Positions 2,920 through 64,000 of a stretch of DNA of 64,000 nt are shown here, piece after piece. The stretch covers positions 1,536,001 to 1,600,000 of the forward strand of contig OY760937.1 of assembly GCA_963664225.1 (NCBI GenBank), in the 5' to 3' direction. The number at the start of each line of letters is the position of its first letter. Positions within the stretch are counted from its first letter, which is position 1. The position numbers and the translations under genes are program-made. The stretch is from Verrucomicrobiia bacterium (lineage in GTDB: Bacteria; Verrucomicrobiota; Verrucomicrobiia; Limisphaerales; UBA1319). The notes under the pieces were generated by a model, which was given only the letters and a program-made list of their open reading frames with translations, did not search any database and was not told where the DNA came from.

Positions 2920-3020
2920 AGTCAGCCTTCTACTTCATATGGTATTTTGAGTCGTTTATGATCACTTTGTGGCAAATTTTGAATTCATCTTAAATATCTC
3001 AGGAAAAACGTTTCCTGCGC

Positions 3021-3168
3021 TTGACTCACGAATCGAACGGGGTGTTAATACGATCCTGCTTATCGTATATAAGATCGATACGATCTGAGCAGTCTTTGTG
3101 TCTATTTGGCCATGCAATGTCGCATGGCCATTTATTGGCTTTTAATAACGACTCTATTGGTAGTATAT
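3021..3168 (+). promoter_or_regulatory. Promoter of yezD-cysTWA with operator copies 3 and 4
   Basis: TTGACT at 3021; perfect ATACGAT-N7-ATCGTAT at 3048-3068; TAACGAC-N7-GTAGTAT at 3146-3166, abutting the start codon. Confidence 0.65.
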
Positions 3169-57932: not shown

Positions 57933-58371
57933 TTTGATTAGCCATCCGCATTCTGAGAACATCCGCACGTTGCAGATCAACTGGAGGGCGAAACGCTTTA
58001 AACCCAGATTCAGTTCCCAAGGATTCAGTGTGGAGAATTCATCCCCCGCGGCACGCAGTAAGCCAGCAACAGCCGAAACCGGCAAGGCGCGGTCGCTTGC
58101 GCCCGATTCTGAGGGTTGAAGATCGACGTTCGAAAATATTTGAAAGACGTGCTGCACCCACTGTCCCAGTGGCCAGTGCCCACCCGGACCAAATGACGTC
58201 GCTAGCCTGGCGAAACGCCAGCAACCAAAAACCATCTAATTGGATTCTTGGAAATCAGGGAGTCCAGTAACTGGTTCACTTTTACCCAGGGTCCCTTCGC
58301 CAATCCATTCATTCACTTGAATAGATTACCCTGCCCGGTCCCTTGCCGCCTATATGGTGTTGCCCACGCCA

Positions 58372-58576
58372 ATACGGTTACCCGCGTTTGGATGAACACA
58401 AGCAAGTGCATAAAGAATATTTGAGTCAGGTTGAGCAGATACGGGAAAACTCAAAGACCTCAGCGGGAGACATGGTTTACGAATTATTTTTCTTTTTAAA
58501 GGAATGGTGCTTAAATCATATCATCCAAATGGACTGCGAATATTCACTCGTTTTAAATCGTCCTGAGCAAAAATGA
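58372..58576 (+). pseudogene. C-terminal half of a bacteriohemerythrin
   Basis: YGYPRLDEHKQVH...FLKEWCLNHIIQMD; the N-terminal iron ligands are missing. Confidence 0.7.
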
Positions 58577-59010
58577 TGTGACTCAAGGATCGGGATTGTT
58601 CCTTGGACCTCAAGATACCGTTCAATTTCATTTATCAATTTCATGTTTCTGTTACGTTTCCTCAGTAAACCCTTGTCCAGGAGACGAACGAGAAGCATGA
58701 ATCCTGATCGCGATGTTTTGAATTTCAACAGACGTGAAAGCTCTCTTGTCGAGGGTATGGATTTACCATGCCTGGCTCTTTGTTAGATGATTTCAATCGC
58801 TGCCTGCTCATCGTGAGACAATTCAGGGGTTTCTTTGGAGATAGCATTGAGCTCAGTCAATATGTCACAAAGGGTACGAAGAGGCTTGCCCATATCGTAA
58901 ACCTCCTCATCGCTGCTATTCCCAGATCGACCTGCGATCCGTTTCAAATTCCTTGCGTCCAAAACAGACCCGCGATTCTGTAGATAATCAGACACCTTCA
59001 ACCTCGACAA
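58516..59010 (-). pseudogene. Interrupted ORF containing a LexA-type winged helix
   Basis: Two same-frame ORFs separated by a single TAA (58783-58785) read LSHDEQAAIEII*QRARHGKSIPSTRELSRLLKFKTSRSGFMLLVRLLDKGLLRK. Confidence 0.55.
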
Positions 59011-59043
59011 GGTTGCATAAACGGCTCAATGTCCAGTTTATTA

Positions 59044-59076
59044 AACCGCCATGAAAAAGAATATTTCATGGCGGTT
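59044..59076. terminator. 13-bp hairpin, likely terminator of the beta-helix gene
   Basis: AACCGCCATGAAA-N7-TTTCATGGCGGTT. Confidence 0.55.
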
Positions 59077-59147
59077 ATTGAAATGTCGAGCATGCTCGAT
59101 ATATCCGAAATATGGATCGACTCTATTTAATGCAATACAATGACATT

Positions 59148-60845
59148 CTATTTCCTAACAACCCATTGCGATCCATTGCTATAGACTTCTAATGCAATGT
59201 AACCTGAAGTAGTAATCGGATAAGTGAACGCAAACCCAAAGCTTTGGCTTGCCGCGTCGAATACTTGTTGATACGTTGTATTAACGGTGTTAATAATAAG
59301 GCTACAAGGACCTCCATTATAAAAACCTAACTTTAAGCGGCGTCCGGTATGCCAAGAAGGCTCAGGAAATGTAACTGTTTTAGTGGACGAACCGGAGCTC
59401 ATGAGTCCCACTTGTCCTTCTAACTCTCCTTTGTCATCGCTGAGAGTGTATGTCGTCCCAGAAAGTGTGGCCCCAGTCACTTGATCCCCACGAGTTCCAT
59501 CAACAGGAAAACCTTTTAGAGATCGCCCTTTAAAGTCATGATTATTAAACATGTAGTTACCACTAGTGTTGAAAACCGGAAAAAAGATTTGTGGGAGTTG
59601 ATTTTGAAATGCCACATCAATTAGATTATTTTCAATGACGTACTTGATGTTTTCTCCAGTGCCCAACCCCTGAGAATAACCACCAGTGAAATATAAACCA
59701 TACCAATTTGATTGAACGATTCCTATATTGGGCTTCGTAGGAACAATTATGTTAGCACGAATAATGAAATTGGTTGTGTTACCCGCGAACCACATTCCAG
59801 CGGGTTTATATACTGAGTCATTTGTTTTAGTATTATTAATTTCAATGTAGTTATTTTCAACTATGTATCTATTAAACGTTTGGCTTCCTCTGGCGTCCAC
59901 ACCAATGCGTATTCCAAGGCCTGTATCTTTAAAAACATTGTTGCGTATAAAACAATCTTCGTTTATCCAGGAATCCATGTTGAAACCCATGTTACAACCA
60001 ATGGCAACATTTCCTTCCATAGTGGCGTTCAATTGGCCGACAGCATATGCAATGCCATTTGGAACATTCAGCACCTTATTGTTGAAAAGTTTGGCTGTGC
60101 TAAGACCATTGCTTGGATTGTAACTACCAAAAGCCGAAATGCACGTCGCATAACCGCCTCCTTTCACGGAACCTTGAACAATGCAATCTTGAATGGTACA
60201 CGTACCACCATTACCAGAAGAAGTCCACATTAATGGGAACGCCTCAATCGAGGCCCCTGCTCCATAGTTTATCACTTTGACACGTTCAATAACAGTATTG
60301 TCAGCAAAAGCGTTAATACCAGATATTACCGCTGCCGTTACATTCGATCCACCCCAGTTGCAATCAAGTGTAACATCACTTAGGTTAAGATTTCGATTGT
60401 TAACGTTGTCATAGGAGGAACCGCAGGTTAATACGGCGGCACCACCACCAGTGTTAATGTTGGCAAGACGAATAATTGTATTGTCTAGACCTGCTCCTTT
60501 TATGTTAGAACCCTGTGGAATTGGAGTGTTTACATTGCCACCGCCAGTTTTGTAACAATCGCTCAATCCAGAAGGCAACAAATGAATTGTTAGATTAGAT
60601 CGCACCTGAGTGGTCCCGTCTGGTGCTTGCTGATTCCATGTCCAAGCGGCCAACCATGAATGGAAATAGCCACCACTTCCATTATATGGATCTTGCAGCG
60701 TGCCAGTTCCAATACCGTTTGTACCACGCAAGGCAAACCACACCTCACTTGTAGTCACCTGAGAATAGCAAGATACTGTTGCCTGCATTAAACACGCAGC
60801 ACCTATTGCCATTATGTACTTATGATGCCTATTTATGAACTTCAT
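59148..60845 (-). CDS. Secreted parallel beta-helix (pectin-lyase/tailspike-like) protein, low GC
   Basis: Signal peptide; GTGTLQDPY, IKGAGLDNTIIRL, Asn/Gly-rich I.NN repeats; tail TVTFP...GR...SNGSQW. Confidence 0.7.
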   Translation of the reverse strand: MKFINRHHKYIMAIGAACLMQATVSCYSQVTTSEVWFALRGTNGIGTGTLQDPYNGSGGYFHSWLAAWTWNQQAPDGTTQVRSNLTIHLLPSGLSDCYKTGGGNVNTPIPQGSNIKGAGLDNTIIRLANINTGGGAAVLTCGSSYDNVNNRNLNLSDVTLDCNWGGSNVTAAVISGINAFADNTVIERVKVINYGAGASIEAFPLMWTSSGNGGTCTIQDCIVQGSVKGGGYATCISAFGSYNPSNGLSTAKLFNNKVLNVPNGIAYAVGQLNATMEGNVAIGCNMGFNMDSWINEDCFIRNNVFKDTGLGIRIGVDARGSQTFNRYIVENNYIEINNTKTNDSVYKPAGMWFAGNTTNFIIRANIIVPTKPNIGIVQSNWYGLYFTGGYSQGLGTGENIKYVIENNLIDVAFQNQLPQIFFPVFNTSGNYMFNNHDFKGRSLKGFPVDGTRGDQVTGATLSGTTYTLSDDKGELEGQVGLMSSGSSTKTVTFPEPSWHTGRRLKLGFYNGGPCSLIINTVNTTYQQVFDAASQSFGFAFTYPITTSGYIALEVYSNGSQWVVRK

Positions 60846-61874
60846 AACCTAACAGTTTCCTTGATTACTTGATTTTGTTTATATGTTACTTCGACTCGGA
60901 CTTCAGCGCATCACAAGATGCGCATGAAATTGTTTCATAGAAAGTATTTTGTGCAATAAAGGATACTAGCGACAAACAAGGACAGACTGTATGGTACAGA
61001 ATGTCAGCCCAATTGACTTTCAAGTTATTTCGCAACTATTCTCGATTGGCCACGTCCGACTGCTAATAATTACGAACCCGGAAAACGCAAATAGTGCGGA
61101 ACGAATATATTTGGTAATTTGCAAACAATGTAACATCGCAATTGGCAATCTCTGCCGTGCCGTTTCAAATGCCCAACAGCGAGCTCACCTTGGCAGCAGT
61201 GCGATAGTTTACTCAATTCGCTCAAACTAACTGTTATACTAAAACGATTATTGTTTAATCAATTCGATGTGATTGCCATAATTTCAGTTTTGTTTCGCAA
61301 TAACATGTATCGAAGGTCCGGAATTAGTGGCACATCAACAATCTCAGTGTTCAAGTAAAAACCACATTTACGAATAGGTTATTATTTGACAACTGGTTTC
61401 ATTATCTCGTCGGATTAATTGCTAATCGTGATGACACCTATGTTAACTATGAATTATTCACAATTTATATCGTAACCTCCATCAATATAAATGTTCGAAA
61501 CATATTTACTAGATCACTAGTGTGAAGTTAAGAGCCAGACATAACGGTCTGCTTGTGTTGAGACAATGCTTTCGCAGGGAGAGCGATGACGCTAATTGTG
61601 TTTTGTTTCATGCAACAGAATATTTGACGGACAATTAACCAGGACCGGTAGGAAACACCCCCAACGCAGAACTAATTTTCCTGCCGCAGTGCTTATTTGT
61701 TGGCCAAGTTATCAAAAACAACTCTCATGTCAACCACATAATGAATATTAATGCACTTTATTTTTAGCCGGTTCACATTATTGGAATACATGCCCAAGAA
61801 TGAGACAGCCCGACTGGTTTATTACAATTATCGTGAGTTCCGTAAACGCAATTGTAACAAATTTCACCCTACGG

Positions 61875-62303
61875 CCTACATACATGGTATGTAGGGGCGA
61901 TTGCCCATCACGATTCCATTTTTCGGCTTAACCGCCGCACCACGACCTCCCCAACGTGTCGTCGGCTACCGCCCGACTTAACGCTTTTTCCCTACGGGCT
62001 TTCCGGCTAAAGGACATCTACCCGTTGTCCTTTATCAAAAATCGTTAAGTCGGCCGATAATCGCCGACACGTTGGGGGACTGGTTTTATAATAAGGGCTA
62101 TCGCCCAACCAACGTGCTCGTTATCACGACCGTTCACGCTGAAGCGTGGAGATTACGTGTTCGCGATTGCGAGATGACGCAAACGAGCAGTAGGAAAAAG
62201 CGTAGCCGCGAGAGCGGCCAAAACATAGCCACGCCGATAGGCGTGCCGACATTGCCCCAAACGGCAAATCTTGCCGTCTTCGCAAATAATTCCCACTGGC
62301 TAT
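61875..62303. other. Large multi-stem structured element (ssDNA promoter/origin or ncRNA)
   Basis: More than ten complementary stems, several nested; embedded CCGACA-N17-TATAAT (62064-62092). Confidence 0.7.
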
Positions 62304-62314
62304 CATTGATCCAT

Positions 62315-62533
62315 ATGAAAAACACAAAAAACAAACAAGCGAACGGGTTCGGGAATTTTCAAACGAAGCAGATTAGAAAAATGGTGGTCAAGCCATTGAC
62401 CCAACTAATCACTGAAAAGACGAATAGTCTCCACAAAACAAGTCGAGAGTGTTTCGAGGAAATCAAAAAGGTCGAGCAAATGATCGAGATCATCGCCCGT
62501 CAAATGGGCCGGGATTTGATGGAGCACAAATGA
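62315..62533 (+). CDS. Small basic/helical hypothetical protein
   Basis: 72 aa; stop overlaps the next ATG (ATGA). Confidence 0.5.
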   Translation: MKNTKNKQANGFGNFQTKQIRKMVVKPLTQLITEKTNSLHKTSRECFEEIKKVEQMIEIIARQMGRDLMEHK

Positions 62534-63972
62534 TCCCGGGTTTGGATGATTCAAGTTCTTCGGGTTTCAAGACCAGCCGCCATTACCTCGTTGGCTCGCT
62601 CCCCACGCGTTTGCCAGCGGCTCAGGTTACGGTTTTACGCAGAGGAGTGGCGGCTGATCCTGGAATCATGCATGAAGAACAATCCATCATCATCGGACAC
62701 CGTCAGGTTTGGAGCGAAGAGCTGTCTTTTGGAATATCTGCAGTCGATCATCGCCATCATGTTTACATCATCGGGAAGACAGGCTCGGGTAAAACGACCC
62801 TGCTTCGTAATTTGCTGATCCAACACATTGCCTTGGGCCACGGCGTTGGACTCATCGATCCACATGGCGATCTGGCTGAGGAAATTCTCAACCATATTCC
62901 GCCATGGCGTGCCGATCAATTGGTGTATTTCAATCCGGGCGACATCGAGTTTCCAATTTCGATGAATTTACTGGCTCACGTTGCGCCTGATGCTCGGCAC
63001 CTTGTTGCTTCTGGGATCGTCGGGGCCTGCAAAAGCATTTGGTCCGACTCCTGGGGCCCGAGGCTCGAATATATTCTCTACAACGCCATCGCAGCTCTGC
63101 TCGATTGTCCCAATACCTCGCTTTTGGGTGTGAATCGAATGTTGATGGACGATTCATATCGCGCTTGGGTGATCCGGCAAATCAAAGATCCCTTCATTCG
63201 AGCATTCTGGGCGGAGGAATATGCCGGATATGACGAACGGTTCAGGCGCGAAGCCATTTCACCAATCCAGAACAAACTTGGACAATTCCTGTTGAATCCG
63301 GTGATCCGCAACATTTTGGGGCAAGTCAGATGCAGTGTGGATATTCCCTTCGTCATGGACAACCAGAGGATGTTCATCGCCAACCTATCGAAAGGTCGGC
63401 TGGGCCATGACAAAGCCAACCTCCTTGGATCCTTGCTCACGACTCAATTTCAACTGGGCGCAATGGCCCGAGTGAACCGTCCCGAAGACGAACGCCAGGA
63501 TTTTTACCTGTTCATCGACGAATTCCAGTCCTTCTCCACCGATGCGTTTGCTTCAATTCTGGCCGAAGCCCGTAAATACCGATTATGCCTCACCCTCTCG
63601 CATCAATACATTGACCAGCTTCCGCTTCCCATCCGCCAGGCGGTTTTTGGCAATGTGGGAACCCTGATTGCCTTTCGCATCGGCAATATCGATGCCGAGG
63701 TGATGGCCAAGGAGTTTGGAAACACATTTGCACCAAGCACGCTTGCCGACCTTGGCCGATATGAAGCGGTCGTGAAGTTGCTGGAAAATGGAACAAACCG
63801 GGAACCATTCCTCGGTAAGATGCTCGCACCACTCAAAAATTGCATTGGCCGGAAGGAAAAGCTCATCGCCCGTTCGCGCGAGCGTTTTGCCGCATCACGC
63901 TCGCGAATTGATGAAAAACTGAACCGGTGGATGGCTTCGGCGAAAACTCCATTACCGACTGACGAATCTTGA
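62530..63972 (+). CDS. VirD4/TraD/HerA-like P-loop ATPase (type IV coupling-protein family), soluble
   Basis: RHHVYIIGKTGSGKT, IDPHGDL, WGPRLEYIL, PIQNKLGQF, YLFIDEFQ, EARKYRL, FGNVGTLIAFR. The start could also be at 62668. Confidence 0.85.
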   Translation: MIPGLDDSSSSGFKTSRHYLVGSLPTRLPAAQVTVLRRGVAADPGIMHEEQSIIIGHRQVWSEELSFGISAVDHRHHVYIIGKTGSGKTTLLRNLLIQHIALGHGVGLIDPHGDLAEEILNHIPPWRADQLVYFNPGDIEFPISMNLLAHVAPDARHLVASGIVGACKSIWSDSWGPRLEYILYNAIAALLDCPNTSLLGVNRMLMDDSYRAWVIRQIKDPFIRAFWAEEYAGYDERFRREAISPIQNKLGQFLLNPVIRNILGQVRCSVDIPFVMDNQRMFIANLSKGRLGHDKANLLGSLLTTQFQLGAMARVNRPEDERQDFYLFIDEFQSFSTDAFASILAEARKYRLCLTLSHQYIDQLPLPIRQAVFGNVGTLIAFRIGNIDAEVMAKEFGNTFAPSTLADLGRYEAVVKLLENGTNREPFLGKMLAPLKNCIGRKEKLIARSRERFAASRSRIDEKLNRWMASAKTPLPTDES

Positions 63973-64000
63973 AACAATCACCACTGGCTGGGTTCGTTCA

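Follow-up and report, generated by a model that had tools for sequence, protein, structure and literature searches.

A conserved, folding non-coding block before the coupling-protein gene of a mobile element in Verrucomicrobiota is a candidate transfer origin

A non-coding block of ~410 nt (positions 61866-62278, + strand) precedes the mobilisation genes near the end of the window, by which we mean the whole 64,000-nt stretch of DNA that was analysed (G000:C1:1536001-1600000). Judged from the sequences of the block, its homologues and its neighbours, it is on balance probably a cis-acting DNA origin, most likely the origin of transfer (oriT) of a MobC-type mobilisable element, which would fold when single-stranded or as a cruciform and carry the operon promoter at its downstream edge. 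The comparative evidence shows that folding of single-stranded nucleic acid, long-range pairing included, is under selection. What an earlier note described, a set of stems and a long-range match, corresponds to the right half of the block; the note had read it as a leader RNA of ~200 nt starting near 62099.

The block and its mobile element

The block and its immediate neighbours are as follows.

61866..62278, + strand: the conserved non-coding block, which heads the mobilisation operon; DNA 74-88% identical between families, left flank not conserved
62315..62533, + strand: ORF of 72 codons between the block and the coupling-protein gene, with no match in Pfam
62530..63972, + strand: coupling-protein gene, VirD4/TrwB-like (PF10412, PF12696); start uncertain, ATG 62530 or GTG 62449

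Pfam matches identify the genes on the + strand 3' of the block as a VirD4/TrwB-like coupling protein, a PF13814 Replic_Relax relaxase (MobC) and a DnaG-type primase (CHC2 zinc finger, Toprim domain). Further 3' on the same strand are ArdC, RadC, a second TrwB-like ATPase (1048 residues) and a large serine recombinase abutting a truncated comM. The passages concerned in three papers treat PF13814 as the MobC relaxase superfamily, with a PD-(D/E)XK fold (PMC5357655, PMC3424549, PMC5704250), and those in two of them describe a trio of VirD4, MobC and serine integrase in the streptococcal mobilisable elements of 'class 8' (PMC5357655, PMC5704250). From the gene set, the equation of PF13814 with MobC and the streptococcal trio, we infer that the element is mobilisable and integrated and that the block heads its mobilisation operon.

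The coupling-protein gene follows directly 3' of the block on the same strand in 53 of the 59 homologues described below, at a shorter distance than in the window. The 72-codon ORF at 62315-62533 is extra in this genome and is missing at that place in most homologues.

Copies of ~61857-62151 at 74-88% identity were found by a DNA search of 60 relatives in eight genomes, which belong to the same order as the window but to other families. The genome collection was searched with 18 nt of the invariant core as a pattern, which gave 94 matching stretches, and 80 of these, mostly from Verrucomicrobiota and Limisphaerales assemblies, were taken for analysis. Twenty failed the filter, leaving 59 homologues plus the window (60 copies). 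Seven of those dropped are apparent chance matches to the 18-mer in unrelated DNA (L027, L033, L049, L056, L063, L065, L071), six are palindromic matches in the wrong orientation (L022b, L042b, L046, L051a, L087b, L096a), and seven were removed by the motif filter though they are probably real (L032, L039, L045, L057, L078, L091, L093). Alignments were made of all 60 copies and of a 40-copy subset (<80% identical). Some contigs with a genuine block (L024, L036, L055, L061, L077 and others) are titled as Klebsiella, Bifidobacteriaceae or Proteobacteria bins, which may reflect mis-binning or a wider host range. Across all contigs of four DNA runs, the shared core 61949-61991 is where assemblies break, and the samples contain further related elements.

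Conservation sets in abruptly at ~61866, ~230 nt 5' of the TATAAT, and ends at ~62278. The DNA to the left is a cargo hotspot (L021, L050, L067, L072, L084, L083, L040 and others; 24 flanking ORFs scanned). Its content varies from copy to copy and takes in OLD-family ATPase-nuclease, HamA, Cas3-like helicases, KAP NTPase, DUF4365, C-5 methylase/methyltransferases and ParB-like genes, among others; defence genes are part of this cargo.

The element also adjoins a truncated comM. The N-terminal 358 codons of comM lie at its recombinase end (L004 14834-15910, - strand), and the sole Mg_chelatase_C part in the genome lies beside an XRE-type gene 1.55 Mb off and on the opposite strand (G000:C1:44355-44927; L019 1249-1821, + strand). 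This split points to an inversion or other rearrangement of which one end lies within the element. That the block itself marks an element end was ruled out, because its left flanks carry varied cargo genes and the comM junctions are elsewhere.

Hairpins and long-range pairing

The block is largely made up of inverted repeats of different sizes, which we number M1 to M9 where they form hairpins. M4 is the largest, and one of its inner segments (A) can pair either within M4 (with A') or ~200 nt downstream (with A''). All are on the + strand.

61876..61894: hairpin M1, CTACATAC-ATG-GTATGTAG; helix 1, 92.5% of cells paired; pair 61881/61889 is TA 48 times and AT 12 times; kept in L115 and L117
61895..61906: hairpin M2, GGGC-GATT-GCCC; helix 2; stem length and sequence variable
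61924..61937: hairpin M3, CGGC-TTAACC-GCCG; helix 3, 85.7% paired; variant GGCTC-AACA-GAGCC
61949..62077: large inverted repeat M4, 129 nt; outer 13 bp CCCCAACGTGTCG / CGACACGTTGGGG near-invariant; helices 4-7
61981..61991: segment A, ACGCTTTTTCC; pairs with A' inside M4 or with A'' ~200 nt downstream
62037..62047: segment A', AAAAATCGTTA; partner of A within M4, helix 7
62095..62106: hairpin M6, GGGC-TATC-GCCC; helix 9, with 4 of 4 pairs changing on both sides; pair 62096/62105 is TA 22 times, CG 16 and CA 6
62119..62128: hairpin M7a, CGT-TATC-ACG; helices 10-11
62133..62150: hairpin M7b, TTCACGC-TGAA-GCGTGGA; helix 12, with 5 of 7 pairs changing on both sides and one conserved T.G
62193..62203: segment A'', GGAAAAAGCGT; long-range partner of A
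62205..62218: hairpin M8, GCCGC-GAGA-GCGGC; variants CGCCC-GACT-GGGCG and TGCCGC-AATT-GCGGCA
62230..62245: hairpin M9, CACGCC-GATA-GGCGTG; variants CGCGCC-GAAT-GGCGCG and CGCACC-GACA-GGTGCG

The arms of M4, as returned by an inverted-repeat search, are 41 nt long (61949-89 / 62037-77), 85% complementary and 47 nt apart. Each arm carries one mini-hairpin, and the inner stem 61973-83 / 62043-53 covaries. M2 illustrates how freely the small stems change, occurring as GGGC/GCCC, GGTGCG-AGC-CGCACC and GGGGCG-ATG-CGCCCC. A module GGTCAAGACACCACGA between M7b and A'' is conserved in L020, L021, L024, L037, L069, L088 and L095 and is missing from the window.

The architecture of M4 recurs in relatives whose coupling protein is 42-48% identical. 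Elements L115, L117 and L118 keep an M1-type palindrome and the big inverted repeat with its CGTGTCG...CCGACTT boxes and mini-hairpins on the arms, followed by an extended -10-like promoter or by TAACGAAGGTTTC-like direct repeats; those of L117 and L118 are clearer than the heptamer repeats described below. A comparable core repeat was not found in L116 (coupling protein 46% identical), and a coupling-protein paralogue in the same genome (L114, G000:C1:374269-375519, 52% identity) lacks a block of this kind in the 1.5 kb before it. An extended -10-like TGTGGTATGAT lies upstream of this paralogue.

Both strands fold better than shuffled sequence. For 62095-62320 folded as RNA, z is -2.9 on the + strand and -3.7 on the - strand, with none of 200 shuffles as good; for 61866-62250 folded as DNA, z is -6.7 (+) and -9.2 (-), with none of 100 shuffles as good. 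A structure of ten helices was then scored on a MAFFT alignment of the 40 copies, each <80% identical. In it, 89.8% of cells pair, against 38-47% after a shift of the partners by 1-3 columns; both sides have changed in 32 of the 66 pairs; and the covariation score is 0.199 against 0.03-0.05 for the shifted versions. None of 500 shuffles reaches any of the five measures. RNAalifold recovered only M1, M4 and M6 from the wide MAFFT alignment, on either strand, and per-hairpin censuses were therefore used instead. Besides M4, at least eight small hairpins are kept by compensatory change. Since sequence and length of the stems vary while their complementarity is kept, this points to single-strand folding rather than to binding sites in duplex DNA.

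All of the stems in the earlier note are present in the letters: TGCTCGTT (62115-22) with AACGAGCA (62182-89), CACGC/GCGTG (62135-48, in M7b; CACGCT/AGCGTG in the note), GCCGC-GAGA-GCGGC (62205-18), CACGCC-GATA-GGCGTG (62230-45), ACGGCAA/TTGCCGT (62261-77) and ATAGCCA/TGGCTAT (62225-31 / 62297-303). As conserved structure they divide. Compensatory change bears out most of the hairpins, but the outer stem 62115-22/62182-89 is particular to the window: of 46 homologues, 5 have a run of at least six pairs there, and the observed mean is reached by 438 of 5000 permutations. One arm of the ATAGCCA/TGGCTAT stem, 62297-303, falls outside the conserved block.

The long-range match claimed between 61981-95 and 62190-203 is likewise real. 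A and A'' form a perfect 11-nt inverted repeat (61981-91 / 62193-203), which extends to 14 of 15 positions with one bulged C. By our estimate ~0.2 such 11-mers are expected by chance within 1.2 kb, so the repeat is not rare taken alone and the question was settled by the homologues. There the covariation that the note had proposed as a check is found. The downstream region fits its own A better than the A of other copies (0.848 vs 0.752), in 50 of the 60 copies and with none of 5000 permutations as extreme, a match that the kinship of the copies inflates. The count of different compensated variants is the stronger argument. Segment A occurs in 27 distinct variants, and A'' tracks it through TTTCT/AGAAA, TGTTT/AAACA, CATTTT/AAAATG, TTTAT/ATAAA, CTC/GAG and CAC/GTG; the column pair 61988/62196 is TA 37 times, CG 14 and TG 3. 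In L060 and L099, a change in A is followed by A'' but not by A'. A recognisable A'' is missing in eight copies (L020, L035, L041, L058, L062, L072, L082, L089). When the outer part of M4 is formed, the A/A'' pairing is topologically a pseudoknot. M8 followed by the T-run that is the reverse complement of A'' was also considered as a terminator on the - strand, which leaves the covariation of the run with segment A unexplained.

The same pairing had led to the proposal that a transcript from ~62099 anneals through 62193-203 to single-stranded + strand DNA at 61981-91, as a primer or regulator. The covarying complementarity would suit any pairing between + strand molecules, RNA or DNA. The proposal depends, however, on a poorly conserved promoter, has no known precedent and is not needed for the covariation, which folding within one strand explains as well; we regard it as the least probable of the explanations weighed here.

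Strand, promoters and the RNA question

The loops have a polarity. TRNC is the loop on the + strand in 160 of 262 hairpins and its reverse complement is the loop in none; it occurs in M2, in M6, in M7a and, like-oriented, in the mini-hairpins of both arms of M4. This polarity fits one DNA strand as well as RNA and makes a simply symmetrical cruciform or duplex palindrome less likely. Folding energy per hairpin favours the - strand for M3, M4, M6 and M7a and the + strand for M1 and M7b. The G richness of the - strand (GC skew) may be partly responsible for its advantage. Folding energy thus gives a mixed picture of which strand folds.

Two promoter-like features matter for whether the molecule is RNA.

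62064..62092, + strand: sigma-70-like CCGACA-17-TATAAT; -35 in the right arm of M4, -10 poorly conserved
62251..62279, + strand: motif M10, TTGCCCCAAACGGCAAATCTTGCCGTCT; palindrome-plus-CGTCT unit, found again before other genes further along the element

A structured + strand RNA could be a long 5' leader of the operon or a separate ncRNA of the oriT region that regulates or assists transfer, with A/A'' as an RNA pseudoknot or switch. Many features of the block would suit it: the number of small hairpins, whose stems differ in length and show compensated changes; the single loop polarity on the + strand; the covariation of the long-range pairing; and, in this window, the promoter-like site, whose TATAAT at 62087-92 stands 17 nt downstream of CCGACA and together with it matches the consensus at 10 of 12 positions. 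There is also a precedent, in that the abstract of PMC9299015 describes an essential sgm-sRNA beside the oriT of the mobilisable island SGI1.

The distribution of promoters among the homologues speaks against a leader RNA. The -10 is kept as TAnnnT (at least 4 of 6 matches) in 16 of the 60 copies, M6 (62095-62106) spans the proposed start near 62099, and the block begins some 230 nt upstream of the TATAAT, in variable cargo and without a conserved promoter to its left. Thus no conserved promoter was found upstream of the structure that would place it inside a transcript. An extended -10 (TGnTAnnnT) instead lies 3' of the block, just before the coupling-protein gene, in 33 of the 60 copies.

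Base pairing gives a similar picture. The census of unique hairpin variants holds 2196 Watson-Crick pairs, 55 G.T (39 from one M7b site), 38 A.C and 25 others, so that A.C mismatches are about as frequent as G.T. G:U makes up 56 of 2581 cells (2.2%), against 81 of 1082 (7.5%) in the stems of this genome's 50 tRNAs. Wobble pairs are thus scarce, and they show no strand bias of the kind expected if one strand were transcribed. The conserved T.G position in M7b (UG in 25 of 38) would suit an RNA. Rfam 15 covariance models gave no match in 58000-64000 on either strand at E up to 1, and among the runs on record as RNA none was found to contain the stretch.

Given the -10 in 16 of 60 copies, M6 over the start, the downstream -10 in 33, the rarity of G.U and the lack of conservation of the outer stem, a leader RNA is disfavoured. 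What is supported of the earlier interpretation is a conserved single-strand fold with a covarying long-range pairing, and what is not supported is the ~200-nt leader transcribed from ~62099. We consider a structured RNA of either kind unlikely, though it is the strongest of the rivals to a DNA origin.

The place of the -35-like hexamer raises the idea of an Frpo-type promoter, a concept set out in passages of PMC11541004, in which a big hairpin of single-stranded DNA mimics duplex -35 and -10 elements and host RNA polymerase transcribes the entering strand. The hexamer, CCGACA in the window and ACGACA in 20 of the 60 copies, does form part of the big hairpin's invariant stem, and ArdC and RadC are encoded downstream. 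Such a promoter has both elements in the hairpin stem, but here the -10 (62087-92) lies beyond the hairpin end at 62077, has no conserved complement and is kept in those 16 copies; the first genes downstream, moreover, are those for the coupling protein and relaxase rather than anti-defence genes. An Frpo-type promoter is accordingly very improbable.

M10 follows the pattern TTGCCCC-N5-GGCAAA-N7-CCGTCT, in which the spacing from TTGCC to CGTCT is constant at 17 nt, as for an alternative-sigma promoter or an operator plus promoter. An exact second copy lies at window-equivalent 64981-65008 (L004 3981-4008), with more at 66787-66814 (L004 5787-5814) and near 64008-64035 (L004 ~3008-3035). The motif thus stands before the small ORF and coupling-protein gene, before the primase gene and before ArdC, with a degenerate form before the relaxase gene. 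At the first of these positions it is found in at least 11 of the 59 homologues, these being among the copies without the extended -10. Readings of M10 as an ECF-type or sigma-54 promoter were rejected, as the spacings misfit those consensus sequences, and we leave it as a recurrent promoter- or operator-like motif.

A candidate transfer origin

The usual place of an oriT is directly before the genes for the coupling protein and relaxase, and this is where the block lies, next to both cognate genes. The region also holds a large inverted repeat (M4, helices 4-7) that is kept in distant relatives. The best reading of the sequence data is a candidate oriT, which is supported by the gene context, the MobC family of the relaxase, the fixed position, the covarying structure, the DNA-like pairing, the promoters downstream, the deep conservation and the strand-specific loops.

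In such an origin, the + strand would fold when single-stranded, either as the nicked or transferred strand or in extruded cruciforms. The C-TRNC-G loops of its hairpins, together with the invariant box, would be exposed to the relaxase and perhaps also to the primase of the element, and the A/A'' pairing would compete with the big hairpin or knot onto it. The promoter of the operon would lie at the downstream edge of the block.

Direct repeats could be a further part of the origin. The candidate heptamer GACNRGT occurs 1.53 times per copy on the + strand, against 0.15 on the - strand and 0.12 in shuffles, although one instance is a fixed position. It is found at 62078-62084 in the window and, in homologues, at offsets of ~3, 56, 83 and 110 nt past the big hairpin, so spaced that several copies of the block show it at ~27-nt steps. 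These heptamers may represent the direct repeats of the origin. The signal next to the inverted repeat is modest, a point against the oriT assignment.

Other observations also weigh against this assignment. The block is without similarity to any plasmid record, a DNA search of the plasmid collection returning no match; the relaxase as query returned one Bradyrhizobium plasmid, at 44% identity. The strand-specific loops and the pseudoknot-like A/A'' pairing suit RNA equally, the conserved T.G in M7b is what a + strand RNA would tolerate, the folding energies favour different strands for different hairpins, and the paralogue of the coupling protein in the same genome, 52% identical, lacks such a block.

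Alternatively, the block could be an ssi/sso-like origin at which the DnaG-type primase starts the complementary strand, after transfer or during replication of an excised circle, rather than a region that is nicked. In RSF1010, each strand of an inverted repeat carries one of the two primase sites; structured single-strand origins are also a feature of rolling-circle plasmids. Here the element encodes its own primase (CHC2 zinc finger, Toprim), the hairpins are strand-specific with like-oriented mini-hairpins on both arms of the inverted repeat, and as DNA both strands fold far better than shuffles; priming itself is predicted. The position before the coupling-protein and relaxase genes, however, is the one usual for an oriT. 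We judge an origin that serves priming in place of nicking to be slightly less likely than a structured RNA. The priming and oriT readings do not exclude each other, and the proposed oriT may be a priming site for the primase as well.

Among known systems, the closest parallels for an oriT are those of MOBC plasmids. The oriT2 of pAD1, whose MobC relaxase is TraX, has a large inverted repeat of ~140 bp beside short direct repeats, and is nicked within the repeat. Like pAD1 oriT2/TraX and CloDF13, the element encodes a Replic_Relax / PD-(D/E)XK relaxase and its own VirD4-type coupling protein, and the intergenic region next to these genes contains a large inverted repeat; the DNA search of the plasmid collection gave no sequence similarity. 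To these oriTs the block adds at least eight covarying hairpins, a uniform loop polarity and a covarying long-range pairing.

With the streptococcal class 8 elements it shares the compact trio of VirD4, MobC and serine integrase described in passages of PMC5357655, but it belongs to another phylum and has a larger backbone (primase, ArdC, RadC, second TrwB-like ATPase). An oriT is not described in the passages of that paper that concern these elements. The Frpo and ssi sites of conjugative plasmids resemble the block in that, according to passages of PMC11541004, function lies in the fold of one DNA strand of the transferred element; they differ in position and gene context, and the -10 here is not in the hairpin and is poorly conserved. 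The sgm-sRNA of Salmonella genomic island 1 is likewise non-coding, lies beside the oriT of a mobilisable island and is needed for transfer, as the abstract of PMC9299015 describes. It is a proven RNA and goes with a tyrosine-recombinase-type relaxase, whereas the pairing statistics of the block look DNA-like.

We tentatively propose, with less confidence than the oriT assignment itself, that one defined strand of the origin adopts a particular three-dimensional fold, composed of at least eight hairpins, all with C-TRNC-G loops, and a pseudoknot joining the inner arm of the 129-nt hairpin to a site 200 nt off. The fold rather than the duplex would then be read by the restriction-enzyme-like MobC relaxase or the primase; alternatively, the folded molecule would be an unrecognised RNA cofactor of mobilisation. 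If the proposal for DNA is true, a transfer origin would contain a pseudoknot of single-stranded DNA that is supported by covariation.

Our literature search found no description of the block or its element family in Verrucomicrobiota. To our knowledge, MobC is the least understood relaxase family, and we know of almost nothing on conjugative transfer in Verrucomicrobiota. The block also offers a caution, namely that a well-supported covarying structure beside a TATAAT need not be a leader RNA. If the folded molecule is RNA, it would be a new large non-coding RNA of mobile elements; if it is DNA, it would join the few cases of single-stranded DNA structure supported by covariation. For a family of elements with defence systems among their cargo, the block provides a candidate oriT whose conservation is deep.
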